Source: a virus
Taxonomy: Duplodnaviria > Caudoviricetes
Virus record (IMG/VR): IMGVR_UViG_3300013426_000029
Coordinates: 27,134 to 91,133 of that record
Strand: one strand, 5' to 3'
DNA length: 64,000 nucleotides
How positions within the stretch are numbered: the first letter of the stretch is position 1; every line of letters starts with the position of its first letter. The notes below the pieces were generated by a model. The model had not been told where the DNA came from, did not search any database, and saw nothing but the letters and a program-made list of their open reading frames with translations. Both the position numbers and the translations under genes were made by a program. Shown one piece after another: positions 26,852 through 54,276 of this stretch.

Positions 26852-26899
26852 AATAAGGGGAAGAATGGCTATAGCAGCTATTCTTCCCCTTATTTTTTT
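26852..26899. terminator. Terminator at the convergence of the two arms, probably bidirectional
   Basis: AATAAGGGGAAGAATGGCT-ATAGC-AGCTATTCTTCCCCTTATT stem with T tract, between convergent stop codons. Confidence 0.88.
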
Positions 26900-29800
26900 A
26901 CTATTGCGATTTAAAATATGCGTTTGCTGTATCTTTTATTGATCTAGTAAGACCTGTATTATTAAGCAACAAATATTTCCAAGATTTATCTCCAAACAAT
27001 GATTGCCCTGTCTATTTAACTATCTAAACCGGAGCGGTATAATATGGAGGATTCATATTTTCTCCAAAGAACTATATTACATTAATTGGACCTTTAAACT
27101 AATCAAAAGACCTTGAAGAAGACTTATAAAGTATTTCTGTAAAAAAATTTTTTAACATAGGATTATCTTTTGCTGTCTTTTTAAATTCTGTATATTTCGG
27201 GCCTAATATTAACTAATAAAGTAAACCCAATAATAACGCAGACAATGCATCACTACTTAATTTATACATATTAGCTTTAACCATTGGATTTCCTTTTATA
27301 TAAGCAAGTCCAGCCTTTAAACCATCTTCTTTACAAAGACTTATAATAGAACCAATAGAAGGAAATATACCCTATACAATAATAGGTATATCTTTATATA
27401 CAGGACTACCAGTATCTTCTGTAGTTATATTACCAACTTCATCAAAAAATAGTTTATTACCTTTTTCATCTGTTTCCTATTCAGATGTTAACTATGATAC
27501 TCCATTTTTCTAAGTTGACATAAAATAATTATTCACAATACCATTCATCCAAGTAGAGAATGAACCAAATAAAAAACCATATGCTCTATGCTCAGCCATA
27601 GCTTTTTTACTTGTATCATAAGAACCATATATATTATCGCCCAATGCTCTTATCGCATTAATTTCACGTTTAGAATATGGTTCTGGAAGATTATCGGTCA
27701 TATTAATTGGCGCATCTAAATGGTCTTCATTATATTTTTTTACTTGAGAAAAATATAAAGCCCTAGCTTTTAAATATTCTTTAGAACCTTTAGCTCCATA
27801 TTTAAATGCTTTAAATCTTTCATCCTTAGTCCAATCATATTTTAAATTACCGTTTTGATCTAAACTAAAAGCTTCCCATGAACCATCATGCATACATTTA
27901 GCTACAAATAAAGTCATACGATTTAAAAAGTCTGGACCTCTTAATGTACTATACATAAATGTTTCTCCATTAAGAATACCACTACGTCCAGTTTTTGCTC
28001 TTTCTGCAATACGCCCAATATCTGTATTTGAAATTCTATATTTTAAACAAAGTTTACTTAATAAATTCTAAGCCATTGGGTTTGCTGTAGAATATTTAAA
28101 TACATATGCATATGCTTTTCTTACATTTTCTGGTTCTATATCAGTATTTAATTTTATAAACGAGCGCATAAAATTTTGTTCAGCACCTTCAAATGTATCA
28201 CGTAATGAACCAATAATATTACCACCTAAAAGCATGTGTGTTACAATTCTTTTTATTGGAGAAATTACCCCGATTATTTTCTATTCTGTTTTAGACATAA
28301 TAGAAGTATGAAATACATTTACTTTTAGATAATCTTGCATATATTTAATTTCTTTTTCTACTACTGATTTATTACCATTATAATTCCCTGTAAGGTATAA
28401 TTGAAGCATTAAAGCTTTGGAACAAACTAATAATTTATTTAATTGAGTTGTTGAAATATGTTTAGCTAAGAAATCAATTAATAAATTTTCAACATTGGTT
28501 TCAAAAAATGGAGTACCATATTTTTCAATCCAACGTTTTCTTTCTTGTAATGCACTATTATAATTATTAGTACTTGTTACCATAGTAGTACTAAATGGAT
28601 TTACTAAATGCATTCTATAAAAGTTTTCTGAATCTCTTGACATCATTTCTCTTTCTTCTTCAGTAATACCTTCAACAAATTCATCAAATGCAGTAGATGC
28701 GTCTCTAATTTTTCTTACAAAGTTTTTCATACCAGTTACTATGCCAGCAGCACTTGAGCGTTGTGTTCCTTTAGAAGCTCTTTCAAGTGGAACCCATAGA
28801 TATTCTGGATGCCTTTTTATATACTCTTTGATTTTAGGATCTTCTGGAGATGTAAATATTGAATTTCCGTTTCTAGAAATACACTATATTTGATAAAGAA
28901 CTTTCTTTAAAAGAGTTCTTTCTTCAGAATCCAAATCATTACTTTCGTCATATGGATTTTTAAACGACATGGCATCAGAATCAGGATCGTATAAATTACG
29001 ATATACTGATGCCTAATTACCTATAATCATATTCTAAGCAGAAGTATAATTTTTATATTTATAAAAATCATCAAACATACCTCTAATCTTAGAATCATAA
29101 TACTTTAAGAATTCTTCTGATACAGTATCATAAGTAATTAATAAATTATTTACTACTGTTCTAATATTTTCATCATCTACTGTTGCAGCAGTAAAGAAAT
29201 TTAAGTTAATACTACTTAAACTGTTTTTATTTATAGCAGTTTCTCCTCTTAACGTAAGTAATGCATTTACTGACATTACATATAGTGTAGCCAAGTTTTT
29301 ATTAAATTTACTACTTCCCTCTAATGCTCTAGCTACTTTTTCTGGGTCTCCAAAATCTGGGCGAATTGTTTGAATTTTAGTAATAATATCGGTTAATGCT
29401 TGAATCTAAGTTACTTTTGTTTTAGCGTCTTTTAAAGTTTCAAAACCATAACGTTCATATTCTTTAGTTAAACTTAAATTTGCACCATCAGTAACTTTAT
29501 TATATTCATTGAATATTTCTTCAATTGGGTCTGTAAAAGTAGTATTTAAAAAATTATTATTAATTTTATTATCTGGATTTGCTTCATTAACTATAGAAAG
29601 AATTTTCTAGAAATAATTCTTATTAAATTCTCCAATATTAAAAGCTCTATACGCACCATTACCACAAGAACTAACCACTCCAAGTGTTCCTAATATAATA
29701 TTATCTCCTAATTCTGGCAACATTTCATTAATAAGTTCCATAGTTCTTACAGCTTCAACATTACCATAATCAGATTCAAGATCATTATATTCTGTATCTT

Positions 29801-31445
29801 GCTTATAAAAGCCTAATATGTTATTTCTATTTCTTCTTATATTAGCGTGCTATTTAATATTAAAATTAGATAGAGTAATTACATCAATAACTCCGTCTTT
29901 ACTTTTAAAAATTAAAATTCCAGCATCAATTAAATCATCAAGTAATTTCCAATTGTGATTAATTACTTCTTTACCATTTACTTCCTCTTTTGTATAATCT
30001 AATAAATATTTACTAAATATACTTTCTAACTATTGAGATATAGTAGCCAAACCTGTAACTTTTTCAAAAGAAAGAAAACCTTTTTCATAAGCATTTTTAA
30101 CTGCATCTTTTATTTTCTAAACTGTATAACCTTTATTATCATCTAATTTATCAAGATGTTTTGTTATAAGTTCTTTAATTTCTTTATTCTTATTTTTATC
30201 AGTTTTTTCTTTAATGTCATACTATTTTCCATCAATAATTACTTCATACATATGATCAAGTTCATTGACTTTCTTAATTATAATTGGTTCTATACCAGTT
30301 GGATCTTCAGATGGGGCATATTTAATCCAAGATTCTGCAGTTTGACCCAATCCATCTTCACGGAGATTCATAGTTGGAAATATTAATTTACAATTATCAG
30401 TAGCTTTAACTATTACGTTTGAAGAAATAGTAATTGGAGTTGAATTATTTTCTATAAAATAAGATGCATTCTTTACATACTTATGCATAGCAAAACCAGA
30501 ATCTGATTTACGTGTACTATAATTTATAGTACCATGAACTTTAGCTTTAAGTAGATTACCATTCTATCCATATTGAAGCTATACTGGAATTACGCTTAAC
30601 TAAATATTTTTTGTATTAACTCCATTATATTCTAATATAGATTTTAAAAAAGCTAACTAATATTTAATACGTTCTTTTTTAACTTGAGGCCATTCATTTG
30701 GATTAGAAGCAGTAGTTTTTATAACATATAATCTGATTGTACCATCATCACCAATAGTTATCCAATCAAAGTGTCCATAAATATCTTCTCCACTTGATTT
30801 TATTTTAGCTTTTAAATTTACACCTCGTATAGTCTATTTTTCAGAATTTAATTCACCAGTTTCGGATATAAATGTTTTTCTTAATGCATCCTATACTACT
30901 GCTAAATTAGGAATTTTTTCTTCAGAAATTCCTTTATTTTTTAATGCACCCTATACTTTAGCTCCATCCTATTCAAATAATATTTTAGAACCAGCAATCA
31001 TATGAACATATTTTGCATCCTTTTTAATTAATTCATTCTATTGCTTTTCTGTTTTTAAATGCTAATCTATCTATTCATCATTCCAGCCTTTAGCTGCTAA
31101 TTCCTATTTTACCTTAGCATCATAATTTCCATCTTCATAAGTTGGAACTAGTAAATGATCATTAATATTAAATGCTGAAGAATTAATAAATAACTAAACA
31201 TTTAAACCACCTTCTGGGGCAGGAGAAGGGTCATTTGGGTCAACGGATTCTACTAATTTAAGATCCTTAACATTATTCTATTTTATTTTATCTATCTAAC
31301 TTTTTTGTCTATCTTTACTAAATACAATATCAGTAATATCTGAAGCAAGTTCTTTATCCCTTAAATAATTCATTAATTCAGTATAATTACCAAAGTTCTA
31401 AAAAACTTCACCATTTAATATAATTGCATAATTACAATAATTCAT
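26898..31445 (-). CDS. Giant virion/ejected protein A (1515 aa, TAG=Gln) with a degenerate PD-(D/E)xK nuclease-like domain
   Basis: ATG 31445 to TAA 26898; four track fragments share this frame, separated by TAG; GHFD…YVIKT…YQLAF at about 30620-30790. Confidence 0.82.
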
Positions 31446-31446
31446 A

Positions 31447-33798
31447 TTAACAATCCTCCCTTATTCCATTCTTCTAATCTTTATTATATTCACTAATCTA
31501 TTGATTGATATAATTAGAAATACGTCTAGACTATTGTGTACTACCAAAATCTAAATCTTTTCTTGACATTAATTTAGCTACTTCTTTATTAAATTTATTA
31601 AATATGACAGTTAATTTAGAGCCATAAAAACTATTAATATTTTCTATTTTAGTATCAAAAATAGTTTCTGTAATGTTTTTTAATGTTTTATCATTAGTAT
31701 CAAATACTTCTTTAGTTTCTAAATTAACATTACCACGTATATAATTACTAAACAAATTAGCAAAGACTTCTTCTCTAAGATCCATCTCAGAAATTCCTGG
31801 ATAAGATTCTTTTATTTTTTTATACATACGTCTTCCTTCATTAGTATTAATTACTAAATTAAGAAGATTTTCATAGTTATTACCTAAGTCTGGATTTGAT
31901 TTAATCATACCAAGAATTAAGTGTACATGTTCGTGTAATAAATCAGAAGGTCTTGCTATTGTACTATTAACATATACTTTACCATTATAAATAAAAGCTT
32001 TATCTATATTCGGATCAAATAAATTACCTCCTATTTCTTTATTTAAACTTTCAATTTCACTTGCATTAATTAATTCAACATCAACATTAAACTAAGATTT
32101 TAATACATCAGAAATAGTAGTCATCCAAGTAATCATTGGAGTAGATTTTTTTTTAGTCTATTCCTTTACACTATCGTCTGGAACTGGAATAACTTGATAA
32201 ACAATATTTTTATTATATTTATATTTTTCATCAAATTCTCTACTTTCAATATAATACTTTTTAGTTTTAGCTTTATCTATTTTATTAGCAATAGTATCCA
32301 TACTTTTACCATTTCTATTTGAAGTACCTAATTCTTCATTCATTTTATAAATAAATAAAGCTACTTTTTCTGGAGTATTAATCTTCTATAGAATATTTTC
32401 TCTATACTTTTTTTGAATACCTACTTCTTTTATATATTCTCTAAATGTCTACATATTAAAGTTTGGATTAGTAACAAACTAATCTTCACCACCTCTAATA
32501 TCTGTTTTTACATCAACAGGAATATCTATAGATTCTATAATTTGTCCAGGTTGATAAGAAGTTTTACTGATTATTTTTTCGTTAACAAAACTTTGATATA
32601 CTTTTTTACCATCTATAATTTCAACAGGTCTATATTTAAATTCTATTGCTGAATTACTGATAATAGGTTGTGCTTCTATTCTTTCGGCAATAGCATTATG
32701 AGCATCTTCTAATGAATCATATCTTGTTCCAAAAGCCGATGAAAGTAATGTACCTCTTGAGATATAAAATTTATCATTATCTTTATAAACATTATATCCA
32801 AGATACTTGCTTACTTTTAATGTATTAATAGTATCCTAAGTAATACCATATTTAGTTTCAATAGGTATTGCCTTAGATTTTAATATAATTCCATTTTCTG
32901 TTTCTTTTAAATAACCATATCCAAAATCTGGAACTAATAAACGTTCTAAATAATCTTTACTTTTACCAGATTCTTGCAATTGTCTATAGCCTCTAATGTT
33001 TGCATCTTCTAATTCTTTTGGATGTTTTAATTTTAAAGCTTGATATAAATCATTATAAGTAATAAGAATTTTAAAATCACCTAATGTTCTTTTTCTATAA
33101 TTTAATTCTGTAGAAAATGGATCATCAAATTCTTTAATCTAATTCCAATTTCTTAAATTTCTTACAAATTTTTCTAATATCTAAATGTTAGATACACCAT
33201 CAGTAGAAGTGTTTCTATAATTCTTTTTATTCTAAAGATAATCAATAATCAAATCTTCAAAATTATCAAAGCCTTTATTCTTTCTAATTTTATTTAAAGG
33301 TTTATAATATTCAGAAGATTTATCAATATTTAAACCATAATCTCGGATTTCTTTTCTAATTTTTAAAAATCTTGCTAAACTTTGTAAATCGTATTTATTG
33401 TTTTTAAGAATAAATAATTCTTCTCCGTTGTTTTGAACAATTCTCTATTGAATTGTTTTACCTTCTAATTTAAGTTCATCTACTAAAAATATATTAACAT
33501 TTTCTTCTGGAAAATCAATATCACTATATTGTGACATACCTCTAAGTTCAGCTAATGAATAATTTCCTTGTAAACCATCAAGTCCAACTTTTTCTATATT
33601 GGATACTGTAATAGTTCTTTTTTTAATTTCTGATTTTTTTTCTTTTAATAAAGGAATTAATTGTTTGTAAACAAGGTCTTTATTATTTACTAAAGCTGAA
33701 TATAAATCCGCTTCTTCAATATTGGTAGAGGGCGCTGAACTCTCATAATTCAGCACCACTTTCTTACCATTAATTAATATTATAATGTTACAATCCAT
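31447..33798 (-). CDS. Large virion protein B (783 aa, TAG=Gln) with a zincin-like metallopeptidase motif
   Basis: ATG 33798 to TAA 31447; three track fragments in frame; LLHEHVHLILG and downstream EEVFA. Confidence 0.82.
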
Positions 33799-36700
33799 TA
33801 CTTACATATTTTATTTATTTGTGTAATAGTTCCCTCTTTTAAGAACTACTTAAAATAAGATATGATTTTTTCAATATCTTCTTCTGAAGCATTTGTTTCT
33901 AAACTTTGTTTTATAGTATTAATTATATTTTCAAAGTAATCAGAATACTTGCTTCCTAATACAAAATATCTTCTTATATTATTTACTCTTTCAAATAAAT
34001 CATTTTCAGATTCACCTGGTTCTTGTATAATAAATGATTCATCATTCTTACCTTTCATTACAATAACAGGAATAGAATTAGATTCCAGTTTAATAATACA
34101 AGGATCTTGATTACCAGAAGTACTTCGTACAATTCTTGCTGAATCTATTAAAACGTCTTGATAATTAAAGTAAAGAGGAATTTGATTTGATTCTAATTTT
34201 ACATCTTTAGTTCCTTCTAATATTGGCACTCCATACCAATCTAAATTAGCTTCATAATCAAAGAAATTACGAAGCATAGGGATATCTCTTAAATAAGAAT
34301 TAAATAAACTAGTAATTCTATTCTTGCCATATTGGTTTCTATTTATAATAATATTATAAAGAACAAAAGCATCAGCTAATGTCATATTGTCAGTTATATA
34401 AATCTTATTTAAATCTCCAATTCCTTTTTTATAATTCTAGAATTTTTTCTAAGATTCAGAACTATCTTCAATTGTCTACATATTTAAAGATACTTTATAG
34501 AATGGAATGTCTTTTTCTATTGCTTTAATTAAAGCAGCAATAAATGGATTCTATGATAACCCTTTTACTTGTTCAGTAATAATATTTCCATCTTTATCTA
34601 CTTTAGTAACTTTACCCTATTTTAATTCGGGAATAATCTTATTTTCAAATATATATTTGAAAGAACCAATATTTGCTTTAGAATTTAAATTTAGTAAACC
34701 ATCTTTTTCAAATGTATTTACTCTACCATTAATATCCAAATATTTAGTTCCTTTAGAAACAGGGAAAGAAATATTTTTACTTAAGATAAAATTATTGCAA
34801 ATAATTTTATCAATAGATGTTAACACCCTAGCTTGGTATTGTTCTGGAATATAACTAAACTACTAAGACATTTCTGAATATACTACATCGAATGCTTTTG
34901 ATTTAAATGAAATATTATCATCTACTTCAAGTACGGTAGAAAATAATTTTCTAATTGCATCAAACTAAGGTATCTTAGTAAATGCATCAAATACATTTAC
35001 ACACTTCTTTACTAGGTCGTATTCTCTAGCAATTTTTTCTCTGTAGTCTTCATCTATAGTCCAACGTTTAACATCTAAATCTTTAATATTATTAATAGCT
35101 TCTAATTCTGAAGTTGTTTTACTTGAATCTTTTAAAGCATTCTTTTTAGCAGTAGCTAATATATTCTTCAACTGTATTACTTTTGCTTGTAAGTCAACTT
35201 TATTAGTAGGTATTCCCTAATTAAATCCATAAAGTCTACCAAGATTACTAAATTCATTAGCTGCTTGTAACACATTTAAGAATTCATTACAATCTGCTTG
35301 TAATTCTGCTTTATCCATAGTAGTTAAACCTAATCTTTCTTTTAATGCCTATGTTTGAAAATTATACAATGAAATAGGTTTTCCATCTTCATCATATAAT
35401 TTAGTTTCACTTCTTGCTTGTTTAACTGCATTTTCTAATGTAATTTGTTCCTAACCAGAATATATATTTTCTTCTGTTAATTCGTAAACGAATCTAGCAA
35501 CAGGAGATGTCATAAATGATACAATATCGTTAATATTATATCCCATTGTAATTAAGAATAAATACATTTTAGCAAGCTTAGATCCACAATTAATCTAACC
35601 TAATATAAGCTCTTTTGCATTCAATTTTATTATTCTCATACTTTCATATAAGTTTAGACTATATCTTAATTCAATATATTTTGAATTCTCAGCACTTCGG
35701 ATTTTTAAATCCTATTTTATTAAAATAGTCGTTGCACCATTGTATGGCTCAGAGATTACCCCAACCTTAAATCTTATTACTATAGTAAGGTAATTACTCT
35801 TACAAGTAATTTAAGTTTTTAACAGGGCTTTTCCTGAATTCACTGAGTATTTTATCCAACTGACTCTGCTTTATATATTTATTTTGGATCAGTTGCTGCA
35901 GAAAGCACCTAACTTATCATTAAGTCAACCTATAGGTTTCCTGTACTTCGTTTAGAGAAACTTTCAGCTATTTTTGGATCTACTCCTTCAAAATTCATCT
36001 AAGGTAATCCATTAAGTGTTAATGTTTTTGGATTATTCTTTGCTCTACCAGCAATTCTCTAAGTAGTAAAAGCAAATGTAGCATGTTCTATATTCTAAGT
36101 TCTTATAGCATCGTTTAAATAGTAATGCCAAAGGAATGATGCCTTTTCTGCATTAGCTGCAATACCAATCACATTCTTACCAACCATGTTAATATACTAC
36201 ATTGTAAATTTAGTAATTGGATCTAATAAAGTAAGTTTAGAATTTTCTTCAGCTCCATTACCATATTTATTAGAAGCATTTCTAATTACATCCATATCAA
36301 TTGGAGAATATGCAGTAATCATATTTCTTAAACTTTGAATAGTATTCTAAATATGAGAAGAAATAAAATTCTTACTTATTTCCTATGAAAGTTTTGCAGG
36401 AATTTCTGTCTATTCGTGAGTTATTAAATTCTATAATACTTTATTTCCATACTTATTATGATATGAAACATTTATATTATTTTTACCACCATGCTCATAA
36501 GGTTTAACTTTATACAATTTGTTTAAAAGATTAGCATAAAGTTCTATTCTTTTTGCTTTTAATTTATTATTTTCTGGATCTTTCTTTATTAGATTATCGA
36601 CCTTTTCTATATTATTTACGTCAATATTAATATCTACAATATTATTTAATGATTCTAATAAAGTTGGATCAGTATTACTGCTAGTTAAACTAGCTCTAAG

Positions 36701-39700
36701 TTTAGCTTCATTACTAATAAAATTATATACTAAATGCTTTGGTTGAGGTAATTTTTCAGAAGCTTCTAATGTTTCAATAGAAGAAATATCAAATAAATTA
36801 CTCCAACCTATATAACGCCCATTATCATCAAAACTTAAACCCATGATATATGCTTTATCAATATCCGATTTATCTCATGTCTTTCAACACAAGTCCGACT
36901 ATATCATCATTATATTAAAATATAATGTCTCGCACTTCGGAACCTGACTCCTGCAATTTTATAAATTCTTCCTTAGTTAAATCCTTTCTTATTTTATATA
37001 GAAAAGATGGAACTTGCTCTATATATGGTTTTACTATTTTAATAAACTTTTCGCAATCTAGTTCAGAACTAGACGCTATAGAATAAGTACCTTTTCCTTC
37101 TTTAAAAGGTCTGAAGTGTATACCCCATACTTCATCAAAGTAACTTATTATTGTTTTAATAGTGGTTTCATCAACACATGTAGCTATCTTAATAGTGTGT
37201 TGAATAGAGCTTCTTTGCTTTGATGTGTTAACATTAATACATCCATCGTCCATATACCAGATGGCTAAACCTAGAGGATTTAACCATTCTAATAGTTTTC
37301 TAGTAATAGTTTTCTTTGGAACGTAAACAGACCTACGCAGTGCTTTTATAGTTGGGATAAGAGACATCTGTGAGTACAACACTTCTTTTCCAGTATTATA
37401 TCCGCACTTGGATATATATTCTTTTACCCCATTATTCTTAATTCCATAAGTGTTTAATAAGTTAACTTTCCACTCTAAATACTCTCTCTGCAGGGTAGAA
37501 TGAGATAGTTTAAACACATAATTACTAGATATAGTTCCATCTCCTATTAGAAGAGCTATTAATAGACTCTTCTGTTCCTTACTAAGTCGAATAAATTTTC
37601 TTTTTGTCATACCTCGTTTAATAAAGTTAGTTTATTTAAACGAAGGTTCCTACTCCCTCTCGGGATAGTCTGTGAACCTTCATCCTTATAAATATACAAG
37701 AAATTTTGTCAATTAACAAGTCCTTCCTGTAAATATTTATCTAGGACGCTTGGCTGCGGATTGTCCAATCCTACATGCTTTTTACTATGTCAGCAATAGT
37801 TAGTTGCTGCCTTTAGATGTATTCCTACTCTAAATTAGTACATATAGGCTCTAAGAAGTTCCCCGCAATTTACGAGATTTAAAGACTACAACTCTGTTTA
37901 TAGTCTGAACCCTGTAACCATGTCTACCATGCAGTTACAAAACATTGTCCAGTTTTTACTCCAGTATAACCTACAGTTTTCATTTTCATAAACGATTGTA
38001 GTGTTTGTGCTGGAATACGAGAAGCTGTAACGTATAATGATTTAAGAAATGATGTATATAAATTAGTCTATAATGAATCTTGATAATTATTTAATGCATC
38101 TTCTAACCCTTTAATATTAAATTTATCTTTTTCTATTTTAGCTTTTTTAAATAAAGGAATTACATTGTTTATATAATCATATAAATTTTTATCATACTTT
38201 ATATTATTAGCAAAAGAAGTAAGTGCTTTCTAAACAGATTTACCAGATTGTAAAGTCATTTTTCTATTAAACTAAACTCCGCTATAAATATCAGCTTTAT
38301 ATATTTTAGATAATATTGTCCCAATAGCCTTATCAATTTCTTGCTCGAATCGCTAATTCTAAGTTAATACTTTTACTTTTTCTTCTCCCTTGTCATAATA
38401 AGTTTGAGTTAAATCTTCTTGAGTAAAATTTCTTTTTTCTAAAACTCTTCTAAGATTTGTTCTATTTATATTATAAAGATTATATCCTATTTGTGTATCT
38501 CCATTCTATGTTTCTGTAACTTTATGTTTAGAAATAAATTCAATATATTCTAACACTCGTCCATCATCTACTCTGAAGTTCTTTTGATTTTTAACTGGAA
38601 CTCCATTCTACATAAATTTATTAGTTTCTTTATTATAAGTTACATCGTTGTTTACTATTTCTCTACCTATTTCAAATAAAGGAATATTATCATTCGTAAC
38701 GAAATATACTCTATTTACAATTTCTGGAGAATCAGGAGATATATCATTATACTATGTTTTATATTTACGTTTACTTATATTACTCCACTCTCTATAAAAA
38801 GATTCACAATTTTCATTATTTTTCTATAATGGTTTTAATGTAATATACAAATGCTCTCCGTTTCTTTTAGTAAACGTAATATCATAATTTTCTGAATCTA
38901 AAGTAGATTTTGGAATCTAGAAATAATCCTTTCCTTCTTTCATAATATCTACTAATGAATCTCCCTCAGATATACCAAATTTAGATGTATATAAGTTAGA
39001 CATTATAATTTCAGCAGAATCATTTTTTAAATTATGAACTTTATATTTTTCTTTATTTTCAGCTGTAAATATCCCTTCTTCAACTTCTTTAAAGGCTTGG
39101 TCAATATCATATTTTGCACGAATTTCTTTTATTCTTGCTTCTAGTGTATCATCATCTAAATTCTATTTAGATAATTGATGTATTTCTTTAATTTGACCTT
39201 TAACTCTCCAGTGATTAAATATATTTGTATGATGAGTTACTTTATTTTCATCAACATAATCCCATTCTATTCTTACAGGAGCTAGATTCCTAGGAACTGT
39301 TATATCTTTCTAAAAAGAGATTTGAATATCATTATTATATACTGGAATTTTTATTCTTCTATTAGTAGCCTTGTTTATAACATCCCTCTTTTCTACTTCT
39401 GTAAATCCGAGTTTTGCAAATCTTCCTATACCATGAATACCACCTTTAGTTAGTTCTCCATAAGTTGATAATTTATGATTTTCAGGGATTATTAAAGCAC
39501 AAGCTTTAAATAGTTTTTCTTTCTATTCTGGGGTAAAAATATTTTCTCCACCTTTTGGCTTAAAATGAATAGCCCAACTATCTACTTCTTTATTTGTAAA
39601 AGGATCAATATCATGAACTAATTCAAAATAACTATCTGGATCTCCTAAAGAAACACGATATGTATTATTAACTTTAGTTTCATCACCTTTCCAAGGTTTC

Positions 39701-42700: not shown

Positions 42701-45084
42701 ACCTATTCTATAGTTGTTGGATACTTTGAAAATAATAATCTACCTGTAGCTTGATTATTAGATTCTTTTATTTGCCTACTTATTTCGGCACTTAAAAACG
42801 TAGGACTATAATTAGGAATATGATTAAAAGAAAAATCACTAATTACAGCTTTAGATGTATCTCTTTCAAGTAATGCTCTTGTTTTGGCTAACTATTTAAT
42901 CCATATTTCATTACCCTAAATTACATATAACTAATCTCCATTATAATAAGTTTTAAAATATTCTCTTTTATTCGTTTCTGCATCTTTAGCAAATGTGTCA
43001 GTTACAAATTTAACAAGATTAAAACTATTATATTCTTTATTTTCTACAGCCTTTCTAAAATCTTTATAAATGTTTAAAGATTTTAAGTTACGTGCTGCAG
43101 CTAAAAATATATTTTTATAAAAGCTAGTATTATATTTTTGAGAAATTAAAAATTCGTTTAAACCTTGAATATTTTTACTAAATTGTGTTTGAAACATATT
43201 ATCTATGAATACTAATGTATCCATAAATTTCTATTCTTCAGAAGATAAATTTTCTTGAGCTATTAAAGCTACACGGTTATCTAATGTATTATTTGGAACA
43301 TGTGGTAAATTAATTTTAAAATCGTCTTGATTCATACTTTTAGAAAGTATGTTTTTACCATTTTTTTCAATAATAATAAAAATACTATTTCCGTTAATAT
43401 TTATTTGATAATCTTTATTATTACTTCCTATTTTTGATGGATAAACATCTATAATAGATGTATCCATTGTATATATATTTTCATTAACTGACTAAATTAC
43501 TTCAAACTTTCTACTATCAATTGAATATTTTTCTTTAACTTTAGTATCATAATTTTTAGATTCTGGATTATATGCAGTCTAAAGATAATTTAAAGATGTA
43601 TTAGAATTAATAACCCCTTTTAAAGTTTGAATTAAATTATATCTTGATTTAAATCCTTTTTCTTTAAGATAATTCTATTCTATTTTATTCCAAGATTTTT
43701 TATTATCTGGATCAAATACAATTCTATAAACAGAATAAAGTACATTAATATCATTACCATCAAATTCCAATGTACTCATTTCTCGTATTACGCTTAATCC
43801 TCCACTTTTAAAAAACTTTTTAAAAATTGTCTAAATAGAATTATCAAAGTCAGAATTTAAATTTATAATTGCATTTCGTAAATCAACATCTGAAATTTGA
43901 TTTGCTAACGATTTTAATTTAGTAAAAGTACCAACAAAATCTTTTACACTAAGTTTACCAAATTCTTCATGCTTTCCAAAATAATCATATAAAGGAATTC
44001 GTTCTATTAAAAACTAAGAAAATTTAGACATTGTTTTTACAGCATCTGGATTTTCATCACCCCACGTTTTAATAGCATTACTATTGCCTATAGATAATGA
44101 ATATTTATATTCATAGTTAGAAAACCCAAAATCATCTTCAACTTGTATAATTGGATTTACCTAATTTTTAATATCAATAAATTTATCTAATGAAGTTTTA
44201 AGAATAGTATCAAAATAGTCTAAATTTACAAAAGCACTAACCGCTCTATATAAATCTCTTTCCTTTGATGTAACTCCATCTAATTCTGAATTCCATCCTT
44301 TTTCAATATTGTTTAAAAAAGTACCATCATGCTTTAGTTTAGCAATAATGTTATACATTGCTGTAAATACATTATAATAACCTGTGGATTTTCTTTTAAG
44401 TTCATCATTTACTTCTGATTCTATATATAATATTTTAGGAAATAATTTATCATTTATACGTTCATCAGAAAAATAATTTTCAATTAAGAAATTTCTTACT
44501 ATTTGATATTGCTTTTCTTGATAATCAATTATATTAGAATTGAATGTATAATCATTATCAATTATCTCTCCTGTTTCTGGATTTATAATAGATAATGTCA
44601 TCATTTCATCTTGAAATTTAGTTTGGCGTAAATAATCTATTGCTGGATTAGTTGTACCAAATACGTCAGATATCATATCTTTATATCTTATTTTCTAAAC
44701 TTCTTCTTCACTTATAAGGTCAGTTCCTTTTATAACTGCAGAAATAGATTTTTCTAAATCAGAAGGAGGTGTATTCTCTAACAGTTTAGATTTTACTTTA
44801 TCTAAAATTTTTTCTTTATCGTCATCTTCTATATTATTATTCTTTTCTAATCTTTCTTCAATCTAACTTATTAATTCATTTACATTCTTTAAATACTAAT
44901 CTTGATTTAAAGAATTATCTAGACTAGTACTGAAGTCTTTTGACTCCAGTACTTTCTAGATTTCTTCTGAAACGAAGTTAGGAACATCCTGTACATTTTC
45001 TTCAGGCTTTATATCTTGGATGAAATATAAAGATCCAGAATCTTCGTTTTTTGAATAATTACTTTTCTTACATTTTTTTGCCAT
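33798..45084 (-). CDS. Virion DNA-directed RNA polymerase (crAss-type, about 3328 aa, TAG=Gln), complement(join(33798..35621,35888..36865,37900..45084))
   Basis: Splicing restores QGSDY|DIDK (DxDxD catalytic motif) and SAATD|NAKE; RIPAQ motif upstream; all track fragments are in frame within their exons. Confidence 0.9.
35622..35887 (-). mobile_element. ORF-less group I intron (266 nt) in the RNAP gene
   Basis: Exon ends CAACTGAT pairing with internal guide GTCAGTTG (U-G at splice site); P GAATTCAGGAAA, Q AATCTCTGAGC, R GTGCAACGACTA, S AAGATATAGTC; terminal G. Confidence 0.9.
36915..37610 (-). CDS. Intron-encoded LAGLIDADG homing endonuclease (I-SceI-like)
   Basis: LIALLIGDG and LAIWYMDDG motifs; no in-frame TAG. 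Confidence 0.9.
   Translation of the reverse strand: MTKRKFIRLSKEQKSLLIALLIGDGTISSNYVFKLSHSTLQREYLEWKVNLLNTYGIKNNGVKEYISKCGYNTGKEVLYSQMSLIPTIKALRRSVYVPKKTITRKLLEWLNPLGLAIWYMDDGCINVNTSKQRSSIQHTIKIATCVDETTIKTIISYFDEVWGIHFRPFKEGKGTYSIASSSELDCEKFIKIVKPYIEQVPSFLYKIRKDLTKEEFIKLQESGSEVRDIIF
37685..37712 (-). promoter_or_regulatory. Sigma-70-like internal promoter for the intron endonuclease
   Basis: TTGACA-16 nt-TATAAG about 75 nt upstream of the ATG. Confidence 0.4.
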
Positions 45085-45093
45085 TGAATATTA

Positions 45094-48000
45094 TTATTTT
45101 AAGAAACAACTATCACTAGAATTATTAAATTCATCTAATTGTTCATATAATGATTTTAGATAGTTTTCTTTACTTTCGTCCGAATCATCTATCTTACTTT
45201 CCAATTTAGTTTGTATTGCTTTTATTATAGCTTTAGCACTATTTTTAGATAAAGCCTAATTTGGATTTCTTACTAAATTATTAATTCGTTTATCATTTAA
45301 TTCGGATAAAACTTCTTTAATTATTGGAGTATTAGCAAAATCTCCAATTGTTTTAATTTCATTAATTGGTTTTGATTCTTCTTCTATATTAGATATTTTA
45401 GTTTCTTGAGCTTTTTGTTCTTGAGTAGGATTAAGAATTTTTGCGGTATATTGTTTACTTTTTACAAAATTTGTATTCTCTCCATCAATTAATTTTATGG
45501 AAAGATTACCAGAATTTTGATATTGAAGATTATATACATTTCCATTATCGAAAGTAATTTGTAAACCTTTACCTGTTTTCTTAATTTTACTTATATTTTG
45601 TTCTCCATAACCATCAAATAAATTTTTTAATGTATAAATAAATCCATTATCGTCTATTTTTATAGGAGTTCTATCTATGTCTTCTATAGATTTTATCTTC
45701 TATAACATTTTAAATTTATTTTTATTAAAACGATTCTATAATGATTTAATATATTCTTCTTTAGAACTACTATCTTCAAGTCCTTCAGTAAAAGCTTCTC
45801 CAAGTTTTTCTGTCATTTCGTTATGAAGTTTTATAACTTCGTCTATTTGATTTAATGCTGGTTTTGAAGATTTAGTTTCTTTTTTAACCTTTTTTTTAGC
45901 TGTCTCTGGATTAAATTCATTTATATTTATTTTAAAATAACTTCCAGATGCAACCATATCAGTTTTAAAGAAATTAGATTTAGTAGCTGAATAATCAGAA
46001 ATATTATCATCTGATTTATTCTTTCTTTCAATTAATACAGGATCTGAGAATATACCGTATTTAAATTCTGCAAAAGATGCTCTAATAAATGGTTGTTCAA
46101 AATCATTTTCTTTTTCAATAGATACTACACCATGAAACATTAAATTAAATAAATCTTCAATTACTGTTCCAATGTTTTCATCGTTTGGTGCACCATCTTG
46201 ATCAATTTGCTTTAGTATGTCTTCATATTCAATTCTAAATGATTCATCATTACCATTTGTATCACTCTTATAATTTATTACATAAGGTGTAGTTTCTTTA
46301 TCTGGATTATTATCTTTATTTAAAAATACATTTAATCCTAATTCATAATTAGAACCAATATTAAGATAATGCGCAGCTTTTATTAAAAGAATAGGCATTG
46401 CTTCTAACTTAGATAATTTATCTACAGTTATTTGTCCAGAGTCTTCTTTAGTTCCGTCTGTAAAATCAATTTCAATTCTACCTGTCTCTTTTAATTTATC
46501 AACCCAAGTATTTTTAGTTCCAGAATCTTCATATGTAGTTAAATCTTTTAATTTAGTAGTAACATATACTTTTTTATTATCTGATATAGGACTAATTAAT
46601 TTATCTATTAATACATCAAATAATTTATCAATGGCTTTATATTGTGTATTTGCTATTTCTGGATCAATATAAATTCCAACTACATTACTTGTATCTTTAT
46701 AGAATTTTTCATCAGTCTTAGTTAATTTACGAAGATATGCACCATGCTTCTAAGCATATCCAAGTCTAAATTCCCGAACATATGAAGTAACTGTATCACT
46801 ATCATTAAAGTTCCAAATTAACTATAACTAATCTTTTACATTCTGCGATATATTCTAATTATTTTGAACCCAATTTCTATAGTTAGATTCAGAAAGTTCT
46901 TTAGAATCACTTCTTGCTTCTTCAAAGTATATTCTATCTTGTTTACAAATGTCTCTAACCTAATCATCAGTTAGGTTATTATCCTACTTAAATTGATTAT
47001 ATCTTTCTAAGAAACGACCTAATCCAGCACGATAATTCCACATTGCAATATAAGAACGAATTGCAAATGGTTTTAATTCCATTGGAGTAGTAAGTTTAGC
47101 CCCATTCTTTATAATAGTATAAATCTATTTCCATTGTTTCTAATATAAAGAAGCAAACGAAACTCCAACATTGTTAAGACATACCATTCTTACATCTTTT
47201 CTACCTGTTTGTGTTTGAGACATATAAATCTTTTTCAACTAACTAGGAGGTAGTAATAAATTACTTGTCACAAACATTACAGGCTTACCTCTCATTGAAG
47301 GTTTAATTCCTGGAATTTCTTCTGGTTTTAAAAGAATTTCTGGCTATGATGTAATCTATATAGGAGATACTTTTTCATACGGTGAATATTTTCCATCTGG
47401 TGAAAGTAATCTATAGCTAGAATTCATATGCCTTAAATAAGTATATGATGTAAACTTAGGTGGATTAATCTAAAACTCATATTCACCTTTAGCACACCAA
47501 GAATCAACTCTATTTTTATACTCATTTATTATATCATCATAGTTATCTATAATTGACTATAATTCTGGTTTATTTTCTTTCTTTAATGCTTCTTTAATTT
47601 TAAGACTATTTATTTGCCAAGTATCTGGACTATTTAATGCTCCTAAACTTAAAGAATAAGTAACTCCATCATTACCTTTAATTTTAACAATTATTTTAAT
47701 TATTTTACCATTATAGCCACGTTTTTCATTTTCAACGCCAGTAGATTTAGTTGCACCAATATATCTATTACTATCATTAATATCTTCAACTCTAATAAAA
47801 TATTTAGCATTTTCTAAATTTTCTTTACTAAATATTTCTCTTATTTCTTGTGGAAGATCATCATATCTATTTAAAGAATCAAATGTAAATATACATTTTA
47901 ATTTTAATAAATTAGTAATTAAAACTCCTTTGTTACCAGGAGTAACTTTCTAACTGGGTTTTACTAATATACCTAAATCAGTAGTACTATTATTATCATT

Positions 48001-51000
48001 AACCCACGTATCTTGTGAAGTATTTATTCCACTATAATGTAAATTGCTAAAGCAAGTTACTAAATTACAACTAAAGAAATCATCCAAATTAGGAGTATCA
48101 ACTTTTGGAGTTTCTACATCGACAGATTCATCTTTATCGTCTTTTGTTTCTTCTTCTGTGTCTCCTTTAATTTCTGGATTATTTTCTTGTGTTAATTGTT
48201 CCTATGTAACTACATCAGTTCCAATCTATATAGTAGTTGCTCCGTTATTCTAAGTAGGTGGATTCTACTATTGCGTAGTTTGCTAATCAGTATTTTCTGG
48301 CTCTGGATTTTGATTTTCTGTAGTCTACTATTGTGTAGCCTACTATGGAGGTTGTTGTGTGGTCTACTATTGAGCAGGCTGCTAAGTCTGTTGTTGAGTA
48401 GGATGTTGTTTTATTTCTTGATAAAAATCTTTACAATCTTCTAATGCTTTATCAATTTCTGGAATTCTTATTTTTCTAAAGTTTTCAATAGATTTAGAAA
48501 AATCAGAATAACCTCCATCGTATTGTGCTTCAGTCTAAGATATAAACTTACTTAAACCGTTATCAATCAATATAGTTCCCTATCTACTTCTAGTAATAAT
48601 AGTATATAAATCCCTAGAAAAAGCTACTGGATTATTTCCATTTAATGTTATATCTGTAAATACATAATCATATTCACGACCTTGTATTTGTTTAATTTGC
48701 ATTGGATCTGTAACATCAAATCCAGCATCTTTTAACTATTTATATAATTTAGAAGTATTATCTCCAATAAAACCTATAGTTTTATCTTTAGGTATTTTAG
48801 CAAGTAATTCATTACTAACTTCTTTAGTAATAAAATCTCCAGTAAAATGATCTCCATTATAATAAGAGAATTGTACCTTCTTTAATAATTCAGGAGCTTG
48901 TTCAATTGTATTTGAACGAGTACCTGCATCAATTATTTTAATTAATCCATTCTAACTTATAGTTTTTAATGAATTATCATTACGTAATGATAAATATAAA
49001 TCTGGAGTAAACCAACCAATAAAATCACTTCTGAGAATATTATTACCATCATTATCTATGTTACTAGATTGATGATTGTCTCCTAATAATAAAAGATTTA
49101 TATTATTTAATTTACACCACTTAGAAATAAGTAATATTTGAGCAGTAGATAAGTGAGTAGCTTCATCAATTATTAAAGATTTAGGAGGGTTCTAAATTTG
49201 TTTTAAATCTACCCCATCCTTTAAGGCGATATTTCCTTTATTGTTTAGCTTAACGTATGTATCTTCTAATTTAGGTGAGTTTCCACCAAACATAATTTTA
49301 AATAATTCGTCTAATGGCTTACCTTCACCTTTAGTAAGACTTTTCTATAGAGTATCAATTTGGAACTAAGTTGGTCCACTTAACCAACAATTTTCTCCTT
49401 CTCCTAAATTAAATTTAGTAGTTCCAAATGTTTTACCACTACCACCAACACCTCTACATATTGTTGTATTTTCGCATACGTCTAATTTACTATCACTATT
49501 TTTCTTTATCCAGTTTAATGCTTTATTTATTAATTCTGGATTTTTATTTTGAGCATATACAATAAATGAAGGAACTTCTTGCGAAGTTATTGGAGCTATA
49601 TTTTTATTTGCTTCAATAAATTCTTTTAAGTGTTTATAATATTCAAAATTACTTACAGCAAGTGAAGATACAACTAATTGAAAATTATCAACATTTGTTA
49701 ATTTAGAATAATCTAATTTTTCATTAAGTTCTGCAGAAAGCTATCCTAGATAATATTTTGCATTAATTAATCCATTATTAGCTAAACCATCTAATACTTC
49801 TTCTATAGACAAACCTGATTTTCTATAATTATTATATAGTAATTCTCTAACTTTTAATAAAGAAGATAAAGAATCGTCTAATTCTAAATCATCATAGCCA
49901 TCAAGTAAATCAACCCTTGGATTAATTTTAAATGCTTTTCTATTTAAATTAAAGAATTGTAAATATGTTTTTTGTACAACTTCTTTTGTTTTAATAAATT
50001 TAATATCTCTCTATCCAGAATTAATATCTGATTTTTCAATCCATTCGTTTATTTCTCTTTCATATGCTCCTATCTCACCTAATAAAACAGCAGCGTCTTT
50101 TATTTCAGGAAGTTCTTTGTATTCTTTAAATACATCTTTATGATTTGCTACATATTGATTCATCATTTTATTATGACCTACTGGCAAACCATTAGATGTA
50201 TTAGAAGATGCTCCCCAAATAAATATTTTAGCAATTTCAAAATTTTTAAGAATTTGTTTTAATTGATTCTTTTCAGAATCTGTTAAAATAAATTCTCCAT
50301 CCGTATTATGTTTTTTATAATTCTAATAAATATTATTTAATAAGGTTTCTACTTCTGGAGTTCCTTCAGTAAATGTAGAAATTTTATTTAATAAAGAAAT
50401 TAATGGATTTTTTGTAATTACTGCATTCTCTAAATCGTTTAATGTTTTAATTCTCTGTTCTGTATTTACTTTATCTATAAAATTATCTAATGATTTATTA
50501 AAAGTATTTCCAATATTTTCTTCATAATCTTTAGTTAATTTTGCTACTACTTTTGGATTATAACTTAATGGAAGATTAGCTAAAGATAAAAAGATTGCAG
50601 CTTCTTCTTCTGGTATATTACTATCTTTTCCATCTATTAGATTATTAAATTGTTCAGGATTTTGCTTATATAATTTTTCAAATTGAAGATATGATTCTTT
50701 CTATTCGGGTGTAAGAGAAATTGATAAAAAATTTAATGTTTTATCTAAGGCAGTTTCTTCTCCAGTTTCACTAAAAGTAGAATTTTGATCAAGATCATCA
50801 GGCATTTCTTGTTTTAACATATTGACAAATTGATAGAAATCATACATTGTTAATACGTTTTCATTAAATTTATGATCTGGATTCATGCCTAATTTTTCTT
50901 TTTTAAATGCCTCGTCTCTATATTTTTCAAAGAAACTATTATTATCTGGAGTCTGAAGCATTGCATAATTCATAGTTGGATATATATTTCCAATAGCTTT

Positions 51001-54000
51001 AGAAACTTCAACTGCAATTAAATTATTAATTTTTTTATGTAAGTCTTCTTTATCCTAAATACCTTTATTTAAAACTAATTCTCTTAATTTTTTATTTAGT
51101 TCTTGAAGAGGAGAAAGTAATCTTTCATCAAGACCATTAAACAATAAAGTTAATGGTTTCTATCCTTGTTTGTTGGTAGATTCTAGAAATGCTTTTAGTA
51201 ATTCTTGTCTTAATGCTCTAACCTTAGCTGAAAAATAACGTAAATCAGAAGTGGTAATTGGATGCTTAGCATATTCTTGAATCCATTTAAATTGAGAATC
51301 AATATTATGTTTTTTAATTGCATCTTCGTGTTTTTTTCTTCTTTCCTAAAATTCTTCTTCTGTTTCATTTTCTTTCTTTTCAAATAATGAATCAAATTCT
51401 TCTTGTGTTTCAGAATCTAATTTATCATTTACAGTTAAAGTTTTATTTGCTGGATCATCTGCTCTTAATTTAATTAATTCATCAAAATTTAAATCAGATA
51501 ATTTTTTTAATTCGGGTTCTAACTAAGCTTGCATTTCTTTATACTTCTTAAAACCCTAATCTACATTTTGCTTAATATTTCCAGAATATTCTTTATATTT
51601 TTCCTACAAAGTACTTAATTCAGTAGGAGTTAACTATTTAACAGATTTACCAGTTTGCTCTCTAACAAATTGATTAAAGTTAATAGTTACAAATTGCCCA
51701 CTAAGTTTAGTATCCATTGCCCAAAGGGTTTTTTCGACATAACCTAACGAACCTTCTCCAAATAAATATTCTTTTTTCTTTATTAAATCTTCTTTTTTCT
51801 TTCTTAATTCTTCTAATTTTTCTTTATACTTTTCATTATTTCTTTTAGATGGATCGGTAACAGAATTGATATATTGTTGTATAGCATTATCAGCATCAAC
51901 AATCTAATTACTTAAATCCTAAAAATCTTCTTGATATCTAGATATATAAGAAACATCTTTTATTTTTTCAACATCATCACCTTTTAAGAAATCTGTTAAT
52001 GCATTAGCTCTATATTCACCTTGAACCATTTTATCAAATAATTCATCATCTGTTAAATGAAGCTAATTATCATTTAATATCATATCCAACTAATTAACCA
52101 TTCTAGTTAATTGTTCATAGTTAGTTTCTGCCTATGATTTATGTTTTTCGTCAGCTGTTAAATATGTAATATTACCATCTTCATCAGTAGTTGAATCATA
52201 AGATAAGTCTTTGCTTCCTAATCCACCTTTATCCTTTATATTTCGTATTTCAGATAGAATTTCATCTTTTTTACCTTGTCTAAGTAAGTAAGATAATTCT
52301 GTCTAAGATTTTTTCTATGTATTATTTCTGTTATTCCATGCATCTATACCTCCAAATAATGCACCACCAAGAGAACCTCCTAAGAAAGACATTCCATAAC
52401 GTTCTCCCATATTATCCCATGCGCCATAATCTGTTTGTGAGAAATAACCAAGTTTACCAGCAAGTTCACCAAGATTTTTAGTAAGATCAGTAACAAGCTC
52501 TTCTGCCATTTCTTCAGTACCCTCACCCAATGCTTTACCCATTAAATTTAGATTACCATTCTAGTATTTATCCATAAAGTTATTAACTATTTTTTTACCT
52601 AAATTAATACCTTTATTAATTGTATTAATAATACCTTTTTTAGTATCTAAATTTTCAATCTTTTTAGCATTCTTCATAAACAAATTAGTAGTATCTTTAG
52701 CAGACTATCTTAATGCCAATTTAGCTGGATCTTTTTCAAAGAACATTTCACCTAAACCAAGATATCTATCAACGCCAAACATACCTAAAGAACTACCAAA
52801 TGCTAAAGCAGCAGCTTCTCTTGGCGTACCACCTTTTTCTAATATAGAATCGTATACATCTGTATTAGAAATTAATGACATATACACTAATGATAAATTT
52901 TGAGCTAACTACTATCTATTCTAGAATGCTTTTTCAGCAGCTGGCATAAATTTATTTAATGACGCTTTACCAAGTGCAGTTTCAGTCCATTTTCCATTTT
53001 CAAATAATTTCTCAACATTAAAAGGATCATCAGTTCCTAAATAAGAAGATAATTGAGCTTTGCTTATCTTACCTTCTAATGCTTCTTGTAAATATTGATT
53101 AGACTTTTTAGAATATTCTCCTGCTGCTTTTGCAGTAGCTGTATTTAGTATATTCTATCCGCCTCCTGTTAATTTGTTGTATGCATCTACAATAAACTTC
53201 TATTGTCCCCACTATAATGCAGTATCGGACATCATATTACCAATATTTTCTAAGGCTAACGTATGTTCTTGTGCATAATCAGAAGTAGAACTAGAAAACT
53301 TCTAACCAAATCCAGCAAGCGTATTCATTAATTCATTATTTGGTTTTTCATCGCTAACTAACGAAGTAACCATGCCATATGCCATTGGTAATGTTTTCGC
53401 TAATTCTCTTGCTACCAATAATCCAGAATAAGCAGTTTGTAAATACGGAATACCTAATGGTAACATAGGTAATACTGAAACTAAATTTTTAACTATGGTT
53501 CCAGTTGCTGATTTATCTAAACCATCAGAATCCATAAAGTCGTACTTATTAATAGCTGAATTTTCACTAGTAACATAATCTTCAACAGAAACTACAGTTT
53601 TATTATTTAATGGTCTACCATTTAATTTTTCAGTATAGTATTCACCATCATCGTTTACTTTCCATTCTCCAGCTTTATGTACTACTTTTTTACCTGTTTC
53701 TGGATCTATTTCTACTGTGTCTTTATCGTAAGTTGCATATACTAATGGATCATCGAACAATGATGAAATATATGCTACAGGGTTTTCAAATAATGATATA
53801 TCGTTTACAGAATGATCTAGAAACTTACCTGTTTTTGGATCAAATATTTTACTATTTTGCGCTAACTCTCTTCTAGATTTATCTGATAACGAAGTCTAGT
53901 TAATACCAGTAACACCAATAGAATAATGATCTGGATTTTTTACAGTAGTTATACTAAAATTTGGATTACGTACTCTACCATTAGTAGGTCTATTAGGATC

Positions 54001-54276
54001 AAATAAATCATATTCATAATTATCTATTGAATCTTCTGTACTAAAATCTCGGAAACTGCTTGCTATAGTATTATAATACCTAGTAAATTTAGCATCAGAA
54101 AATTTTCCATTTGGATCTTGAAATACTTTCTACTTCTAAACAAAAGGAGTTTTTTCATATGCTTCTTTTGATAAAAACTAAGTATTCTATAAATTCATTC
54201 CAATTACGTCTTTAAAATCCTAAGGTGTAAAGTCAGGATTATTAAAAGACGCCATTAACCAATCATTTTGTTTCAT
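45094..54276 (-). CDS. Giant virion protein D (3060 aa, TAG=Gln) with an SF1 helicase-like domain
   Basis: ATG 54276 to TAA 45094; five track fragments in frame; GVGGSGKT, LIIDEATH, LGDNHQ, QIQGREYD, YTIITRSR. Confidence 0.85.
48250..48410 (-). repeat. Gln/Thr/Pro-rich low-complexity linker (TQQQT-like units)
   Basis: Units ACT CAA CAA CAG ACT, GCT CAA TAG TAG ACC, ACA CAA TAG TAG ACT. Confidence 0.8.

Follow-up and report, generated by a model that had tools for sequence, protein, structure and literature searches.

Terminal cysteines at facing protein ends suggest that the giant cargo proteins of crAss-like phages are tied head to tail

No phages are more abundant in the human gut than crassviruses, and the present analysis bears on how their very large, polymerase-associated proteins may be stored and injected. 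The DNA that we analysed, hereinafter the window, comprises 64,000 nucleotides (positions 27,134 to 91,133) of the 91-kb IMG/VR virus record IMGVR_UViG_3300013426_000029. It belongs to a crAss-like phage in which TAG is recoded to glutamine (TAG=Q). With TAG read in this way, the minus strand encodes, in the order of transcription, two cysteine-free virion proteins followed by four giant proteins, which we term D, RNAP (the RNA polymerase), B and A. An earlier note on this DNA had proposed that these four are linked end to end, in gene order, through cysteines at their termini. We find that a terminal-cysteine rule holds both in the window and across cultured and reference crassviruses, and that it may well reflect a chain of separately encoded proteins. 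The features are as follows; cysteine positions are counted from the start of the protein or, as negative numbers, from its end, -1 being the last residue:

56198-59068, minus strand: upstream virion protein, no cysteine
54273-56201, minus strand: upstream virion protein, no cysteine
45094-54276, minus strand: D, the first link, 3060 amino acids, with a central SF1-helicase-like region; free N-end MKQNDW; C-end ..SCFLK(stop), Cys at -4, codon 45106-45108
33798-45084, minus strand: RNAP, whole gene, in three coding pieces with two interruptions
37900-45084, minus strand: RNAP coding piece 1; starts MAKKC, Cys5 codon 45070-45072; ends ..GSDY within the catalytic motif
36866-37899, minus strand, approximate boundaries: RNAP interruption 1, a putative intron carrying a LAGLIDADG homing endonuclease open reading frame (ORF) at 36915-37610
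35888-36865, minus strand: RNAP coding piece 2; resumes ..DIDKAYIMG..
35667-35887, minus strand, approximate boundaries: RNAP interruption 2, a putative small intron with a change of frame
33798-35666, minus strand: RNAP coding piece 3; ends ..INKICK(stop), Cys at -2, codon 33804-33806; its stop and the start of B share one base
31447-33798, minus strand: B, zincin-motif protein, 783 amino acids; Cys3 codon 33790-33792, last-residue Cys783 codon 31450-31452; HEHVH (residues 622-626) at 31921-31935
26898-31445, minus strand: A, the last link, 1515 amino acids; starts MNYC.., Cys4 codon 31434-31436; free C-end ..YFKSQQ

A cysteine lies at most five residues from the end at all six facing termini of D, RNAP, B and A, and at neither of the two free ends. 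The six junction termini are thus as the earlier note had listed them, the cysteine codons having been checked in the DNA; equally, the start of D (MKQNDW) and the end of A (..YFKSQQ) lack a cysteine as it had stated, and the two upstream virion proteins hold none at all. Each chain gene starts at the first ATG past the stop before it, and neighbouring genes either abut or share one base. Cysteine makes up 0.26-0.98% of the four chain proteins. Among the other 53 window ORFs of at least 60 amino acids, one has a cysteine in residues 2-6 and three have one in the last five residues; the contrast between the junction termini (6/6) and these other termini (4/106) gives a Fisher p of 8.8e-8. The seven other late ORFs have four cysteines in 3,165 residues, and the other overlapping gene junctions in the window are without cysteine codons.

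The terminal cysteines are conserved among homologues of each link. In homologues of A (29-60% identical) the first cysteine falls at residue 3-6 in 98 of 101, the three misses being shorter gene calls, and none of the 101 has a cysteine in its last 12 residues; C4 is invariant in an alignment of 94 sequences. For B, we considered the best 150 of 299 representatives with E <= 0.001 and counted as full-length the 117 of 700-1000 amino acids: each of the 117 carries a cysteine among its last five residues, and in 114 there is another among the first eight. In an alignment of 115 B sequences, with a mean column identity of just 13%, the sole invariant columns are C3, E623, H626, Y642, E677 and C783. 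Since C3 and C783 are invariant alongside the active-site residues, the terminal cysteines of B are as strictly kept as its zincin site. The D homologues listed have a cysteine in the last five residues in 119 of 120 cases, the exception lacking its C-terminal part, and in the first ten residues in none of the 120. Full-length RNAP homologues end in ..VCE or ..VCK. About 100 near-identical RNAP database entries (P0252-P0353) begin with MINLSK.., without an early cysteine, and many of them end inside the putative intron (..QNCSL). We considered these as a counter-example and rejected them as an artefact of gene calling: in the DNA of the three loci printed, the gene starts with MKKC.. 16 codons upstream. 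For recoded, interrupted RNAP genes, neither the starts nor the ends called in databases can be relied on.

A profile search of IMG/VR with A recovered 61 loci, 59 of them with the whole A gene and together presenting 32 distinct junction sequences. In 59/59 of these, A has its cysteine at residues 3-6 and none at the C-end, the upstream neighbour of A has cysteines at residues 3-4 and within the last three residues, and the second protein upstream ends with a cysteine within four residues. A search of IMG/VR with B alone gave no match. Against phages, megablast of the window gave no match, and tblastn with B, A and the RNAP pieces as queries matched nothing beyond MT835470, MT835492 and one fragment. 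These two unannotated genomes, the former using the standard code and the latter TAG=Q, are 24-37% identical to the window proteins and show the same terminal-cysteine pattern: in MT835470, D has a single cysteine in 2,967 residues, at -5, and A a single cysteine in 1,523 residues, at position 3.

The same rule is seen in cultured and reference crassviruses. Across 14 genomes read from the DNA, with chains of two, three, four or five links, a cysteine lies within six residues at 50 of 52 facing termini and at 0 of 28 free ends. The two misses are gp50 of crAss001, with its cysteine at -9, and an annotated start in crAss002; in the latter phage gp33 fits the rule if an internal Met-Ser-Cys at residue 33 of the annotated protein is the true start. 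The pattern is displayed by several architectures, such as: crAss001, in which gp47 has one cysteine at -3, gp50 (the RNAP) has Cys5 and a cysteine at -9, and gp49 has one cysteine, Cys5; phi14:2, in which the sole cysteine of gp078 is the last residue, the polymerase gp077 has cysteines at 3 and -2, and the sole cysteine of gp076 is at 3; DAC15, with the same terminal-cysteine pattern; p-crAssphage, in which gp45 (Cys at -2) faces gp44, an RNAP fused to an A-like part (Cys3). The three phi14:2 proteins have four cysteines in 5,398 residues, all at facing ends, for which uniform placement gives p ~1e-10. In the two-link phages p-crAssphage, cr11_1, cr50_1, cr1_1, cr52_1 and Flavobacterium phage Fpv1 there is one junction with one cysteine pair, and the fused 4,401-residue protein of Fpv1 (gp33) has a single cysteine, at -2. 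The survey across crAss-like phages that the earlier note called for thus finds terminal cysteines only at facing ends, with none at the equivalent boundaries within fused genes. Its wording that the chain runs in gene order does not hold as a general rule: both crAss001 (gp47) and DAC15 (gp078) encode the first link on the strand opposite its partners, and in both the C-terminal cysteine is kept.

In crAss001 and p-crAssphage the zincin closes the first protein; in the window phage it follows the polymerase. Because domain order and strand vary in this way, the rule tracks the breaks in the chain rather than domains, gene order or a DNA motif. In every protein with a C-terminal cysteine in which an HExxH was found (B of the window, L004 gp47, p-crAssphage gp45, crAss002 gp32, L014 gp33, cr11_1 gp65, L070, L078 and L047), this motif lies ~155-220 residues before the end. 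The zincin in proteins with a C-terminal cysteine always sits just upstream of a chain junction in the architectures read. In fused proteins of the Suoliviridae the polymerase comes after the zincin.

The behaviour of the cysteines when a gene is cut is seen in MT835492, where D is encoded by two overlapping ORFs, the break mapping between residues 1450 and 1455 of the window D. Unsplit relatives read ..AFKINPRVDLL.. at this site, and the split form reads ..NNFEACKVIA(stop) and MQSNCVNLL... Hence, a cysteine appears within five residues of each new end, in keeping with the idea in the earlier note that such cysteines mark internal junctions, and the first half (D1) has no other cysteine. The split recurs in 11/11 related IMG/VR contigs, making 12 contigs in all, and is therefore no assembly error; it is conceivable that the halves are rejoined by a programmed frameshift. 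A further architecture occurs in nine IMG/VR loci of standard code (L070-L076, L079, L080), in which an extra protein of 333 amino acids stands between the polymerase and a zincin protein of 549 amino acids, and both of these have exactly two cysteines, one near each end. This five-part arrangement belongs to a distant group, the A of which is 23% identical to that of the window. We tried the 333-residue protein as the N-terminal part of a split B and rejected this, as it has no match to the B profile; hence, we call it an extra link and not a product of fission.

Against an uninterrupted relative the RNAP gene tiles as 45078-37900, 36865-35888 and 35666-33801. No window ORF on its own contains the catalytic D[FY]DxD motif; it is cut by interruption 1, and pieces 1 and 2 once joined rebuild GSDYDIDK, as in the uninterrupted relative L005. 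The ORF at 36915-37610 within this interruption encodes a LAGLIDADG endonuclease (PF03161, Pfam E 5.9e-24), and MT835470 (L002) and L009 carry an insertion at this site too. The ending ..QSCSL(stop) of the ORF that holds piece 1 was rejected as a protein terminus, as it lies inside interruption 1. Where the earlier note spoke of both introns, the two interruptions stand, the first with its endonuclease ORF; since Rfam gave no intron match (E <= 0.1 across 26000-64000), splicing is inferred and the elements are termed putative introns. As for recoding, the plus-strand genes (1-26847) are open in the standard code with no in-frame TAG, and those of the minus strand (26898-64000) are open only with TAG as a residue, having 10-70 in-frame TAG codons per late gene; the recoding in this phage is strand- or stage-specific. 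ARAGORN found no tRNA gene of any kind in the window, and therefore the suppressor tRNA, if any, is elsewhere in the genome.

Sequence comparisons link these proteins to families with differing clarity. Direct BLASTP of the window RNAP against the virion RNA polymerase (vRNAP) of phi14:2 and gp50 of crAss001 gave no match at E <= 0.01. An indirect link exists, in that it matches the L070 RNAP with 1e-64, which in turn matches crAss001 gp50 with 5e-7 and phi14:2 gp077 with 4e-5. B has the zincin signature HEHVH at residues 622-626, with E623, H626 and E677 invariant and H622 at least 90% conserved in the 115 aligned sequences. No Pfam family matches B at E <= 0.01; against the zincin region of crAss001 gp47 it gives a weak profile match (E 0.004, probability 8%), as does A against crAss001 gp49 (E 0.013). 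We did not adopt direct homology of A and B to gp49 and gp47, for which there are only these weak profile matches and none by BLASTP. D scores 23.4 bits against AAA_30 (cut-off 27) and 20.9 against UvrD_C_2 (cut-off 27.4), both below the curated cut-offs of Pfam; most D homologues have a precomputed PF13604 match. After its helicase-like region, at about residues 1935-2010, the window D has a long low-complexity stretch rich in Gln, Thr and Pro.

We modelled the B-A junction with two homologues, P0116 (49% identical to B), of which the C-terminal 239 residues were used, and P0001 (60% identical to A), of which the N-terminal 345 were used. Both proteins are nearly identical to genes of one phage group, and each was modelled with its alignment. 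This complex scored 0.76, as against 0.23 for the best of three controls. Of solved complexes, 58 of 80 attained that mark, and of mismatched pairs 2 of 110, counts that hold only roughly here because our own alignments were supplied. Agreement between runs covers at least 72% of contacts, and the pLDDT (predicted local distance difference test) of the partner is 81 or higher. The best-defined contacts pair residues 293-297 of B with residues 9-4 of A in antiparallel fashion, a register that would bring the C-terminal Cys298 of B next to Cys4 of A; the HExxH of B and the stretch of A from residue 17 to 50 also belong to the predicted interface. In the model, the junction looks like a hairpin without its turn. 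The C-to-N docking put forward in the earlier note is accordingly supported by one complex model of B and A homologues against controls, which argues for binding and falls short of demonstrating it.

Taken together, we propose that the C-ends of D, RNAP and B are each linked to the N-end of the next protein, most likely by terminal disulfides, and that the same applies to crAss-like phages generally, a reading to which we give a probability of about 0.6. It draws on the sequence rule, the depth of conservation, the fusion and fission behaviour and the modelled B-A docking, and from these we infer the covalent bond and the assembly into one chain. The C-terminal strand of each cargo protein would dock antiparallel on the N-terminal strand of the next, and the single conserved cysteine on each strand would close the pair, most likely as a disulfide, such that the junction mimics a β-hairpin with the disulfide in place of the turn. 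The product would be topologically one polypeptide of ~8,700 residues. Other crassviruses would build the same chain from fewer, longer proteins, with peptide bonds replacing cysteine pairs. All links would assemble as one chain in the capsid and be co-packaged in a fixed ratio; the chain would then exit through the tail as one partly unfolded string, and its separation in the host may be achieved by thiol reduction, by the zincin domain adjoining a junction, or by both. In crAss001, gp47, gp49 and gp50 are described as unresolved capsid cargo (Bayfield 2023, PMC10172136), and crassvirus cargo proteins are thought to be ejected partly unfolded (PMC10172136; bioRxiv 10.1101/2020.03.07.982082).

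A covalent or metal lock is favoured over plain docking of the termini because: one cysteine is strictly kept on each side; the chain proteins have hardly any other cysteines; the pair occurs wherever a gene break interrupts the chain, is missing from free ends, and arose anew where D was split; crAss001 particles are known to contain inter-subunit disulfides, in the tail and portal vertex (Bayfield 2023, PMC10172136). A wider version of the proposal, which we advance tentatively and think somewhat likelier to be wrong than right, is that all crAss-like phages, including the Flavobacterium Fpv phages, pack the polymerase module as one covalent hetero-polymer of 5,000-9,000 residues. Genes in this module could then be cut and fused freely, each cut being mended post-translationally by a terminal disulfide that replaces a hairpin turn; the polymer would exit N-end first as a single thread and be dismantled in the host by thiol reduction and the zincin.

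Several observations weigh against a disulfide-linked chain. Assembly proceeds in a reducing cytoplasm, and the anaerobic gut is home to most of these phages; therefore any oxidation would have to come late. The position of the cysteine drifts from -1 to -9, the latter in crAss001 gp50, and the N-end of crAss002 gp33 fits only if the internal Met before Ser-Cys is the true start. In p-crAssphage, gp47 has a lone cysteine at -2 with no partner cysteine in the next protein, and therefore a terminal cysteine can serve other ends too. The homology of the window proteins to those of cultured crassviruses is weak or indirect. Finally, the complex model gives no distance between the sulfur atoms, used homologues of the window proteins and covers the cognate B-A pair only.

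Among other readings, a shared metal ion is unlikely: the docked termini would hold, for example, Zn or Fe with the Glu of B or other nearby side chains, and no disulfide would form. Such a bridge can form in a reducing cytoplasm, the earlier note had allowed for metal too, and B has a near-invariant Glu, E781, two residues before Cys783. This Glu is specific to the tail of B, however, being absent from those of D and RNAP, and each terminus offers one cysteine with no conserved His or second cysteine adjoining it. We consider it clearly improbable that the cysteines attach the cargo elsewhere, be it to the portal, the capsid interior, another virion protein or a cofactor, or that they act as packaging or ejection signals. 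Such a role would suit the terminal cysteines that have no facing partner, namely the lone one at the C-end of p-crAssphage gp47 and those in the Cys-Gly-Gly tails of small proteins in the Intestiviridae, but it leaves unexplained why the first N-end and last C-end of the chain are cysteine-free (0/28 free ends), why the number of terminal cysteines is twice that of junctions in every architecture, and why tail and head pair in the model. A different pairing of the same cysteines is more doubtful: the N- and C-terminal cysteines of RNAP and of B might each bond within the protein, with the C-end of D joined to the N-end of A, or each terminal cysteine might form homodimers. B and RNAP do carry both cysteines, the N-terminal strands of B and A look alike, and symmetric inter-subunit disulfides are described for crAss001 gp57 (PMC10172136). 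Yet in the two-link phages (p-crAssphage, cr11_1, Fpv1, cr50_1, cr1_1 and cr52_1) the sole cysteine pair is on two different proteins, and homodimers give no reason for the loss of cysteines in fused forms or their gain on both sides of a split. The motifs are moreover junction-specific, with RNAP tail and B head differing from B tail and A head, and the model docks the tail of B on the head of A, although the N-end of B itself was outside the modelled fragments.

Chance, a gene-calling artefact or a nucleotide signal, such as one for translational coupling, that happens to encode cysteine has very little probability left. Many junctions are alike in DNA (..TGTTAATG..TGT), and one set of RNAP database entries seemed to be without the N-terminal cysteine; that set results from a short gene call, with MKKC.. 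upstream in 3/3 printed loci. The cysteine is kept where partner genes lie on opposite strands, and in the tail of D it stands 3-6 residues from a stop after which a spacer comes; the other overlapping junctions of the window lack cysteine codons, and the p values (8.8e-8 in the window, ~1e-10 in phi14:2) speak against chance. As crAss001 gp47 and DAC15 gp078 are encoded on the opposite strand, a nucleotide junction motif is ruled out, and we rejected a signal at this level given that the cysteine persists across strands and its distance to the stop varies. Several further candidates were set aside: split inteins or trans-splicing, as the ORFs abut or overlap with 0-9 bases between them, have no spare domain, and show no Pfam match on the termini; lipidation of the terminal cysteine, as both a signal peptide and a lipobox are lacking and no CaaX pattern is conserved in the tails; a 'cysteine switch' on the zincin zinc, which was rejected as a general explanation, even though HExxH is in the modelled interface, because the D and RNAP tails have cysteines without a zincin of their own in the clade of the window. 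Covariation between the tail of B and the head of A (Glu at -2 with Tyr at +2 in 24 of 32 junction types, one without both) is not counted as support because there are too few independent changes.

Two further sets of observations concern cysteines in these phages. Lone near-C-terminal cysteines with no facing cysteine in the next protein are seen in p-crAssphage gp47 (857 amino acids) and gp48, crAss002 gp30 and cr11_1 gp62. In small virion proteins of the Intestiviridae the lone-cysteine ends often read Cys-Gly-Gly followed by basic residues, a second and distinct terminal-cysteine motif. Separately, the early/middle block of the window encodes a thioredoxin-family protein of 85 amino acids (23637-23894, plus strand; PF00085, 48 bits, above the cut-off), and the annotation of p-crAssphage includes the thioredoxins gp39 and gp37. 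It is possible that the window protein functions in making or opening the proposed disulfides.

The rule is of use in several ways. Being order-wide, it predicts which protein ends touch and gives the order of the proteins in the chain; it explains both the tolerance of gene fusion and fission and the near-absence of other cysteines in the cargo proteins; as an annotation aid, it marks the true starts and ends of giant genes that are obscured by recoding, introns and gene callers. The crassvirus ejection proteins are still to be resolved, according to a 2026 paper on phage N4 (PMC13434306). The main-text passages of the literature searched held no description of terminal cysteines or a covalent chain in crassvirus cargo proteins, and the extended data of PMC10172136, which include a disulfide table and mass spectrometry of 'R and NR samples', may bear on this; the words 'cysteine' and 'disulfide' are absent from the main text of the phi14:2 preprint, the epsilon-crAss paper, Yutin 2021 and the Crassvirales review. 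Inter-chain disulfides and giant single-chain virion polymerases are known; as far as we found, separate cargo proteins joined head to tail in a chain are not.

The closest counterparts of the window proteins are crAss001 gp47, gp50 and gp49 and the phi14:2 vRNAP with its two neighbours, which represent the same module of giant cysteine-poor virion proteins around a D[FY]DxD RNAP (PMC10172136; bioRxiv 10.1101/2020.03.07.982082). These cultured phages obey the same terminal-cysteine rule; the window phage differs in that its zincin is in a protein of its own, B, and D has a helicase-like region. Fused crAss-like forms have the same domains in one chain: Fpv1 gp33 with 4,401, cr50_1 gp059 with 4,774 and p-crAssphage gp44 with 4,070 amino acids. 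They differ in that continuity is provided by peptide bonds; the sole cysteine of Fpv1 gp33 is at its C-end, and the others have a few internal cysteines. The phi14:2 preprint (bioRxiv 10.1101/2020.03.07.982082) notes such fusions and guesses that they are cleaved. The tail and portal-vertex disulfides of crAss001 (PMC10172136) show that disulfides form in crassvirus particles; they fix symmetric rings and hubs, whereas the proposed links would join different cargo proteins end to end. Beyond crassviruses, the N4-type virion RNA polymerase is a 'beads on a string' protein of ~3,500 residues that is stored in the head and threaded, probably unfolded, via the narrow tail (PMC13434306). A cysteine-stapled chain would give crassviruses an N4-like string topology; the N4 protein differs in being the product of one gene, with peptide bonds throughout and an unrelated polymerase fold (PMC13434306), whereas the crassvirus gene products would be joined after translation.

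A parallel in principle is furnished by two-chain protein toxins, in which one disulfide joins the chains and is reduced once the toxin has reached the cytosol. Like the proposed chain, they are translocated, partly unfolded, with a single disulfide between chains that is opened by the reducing interior of the target cell. The proteins are unrelated, however, and the two chains of such toxins are cut from one precursor, whereas the chain proposed for crAss-like phages would join up to five proteins from separate genes.

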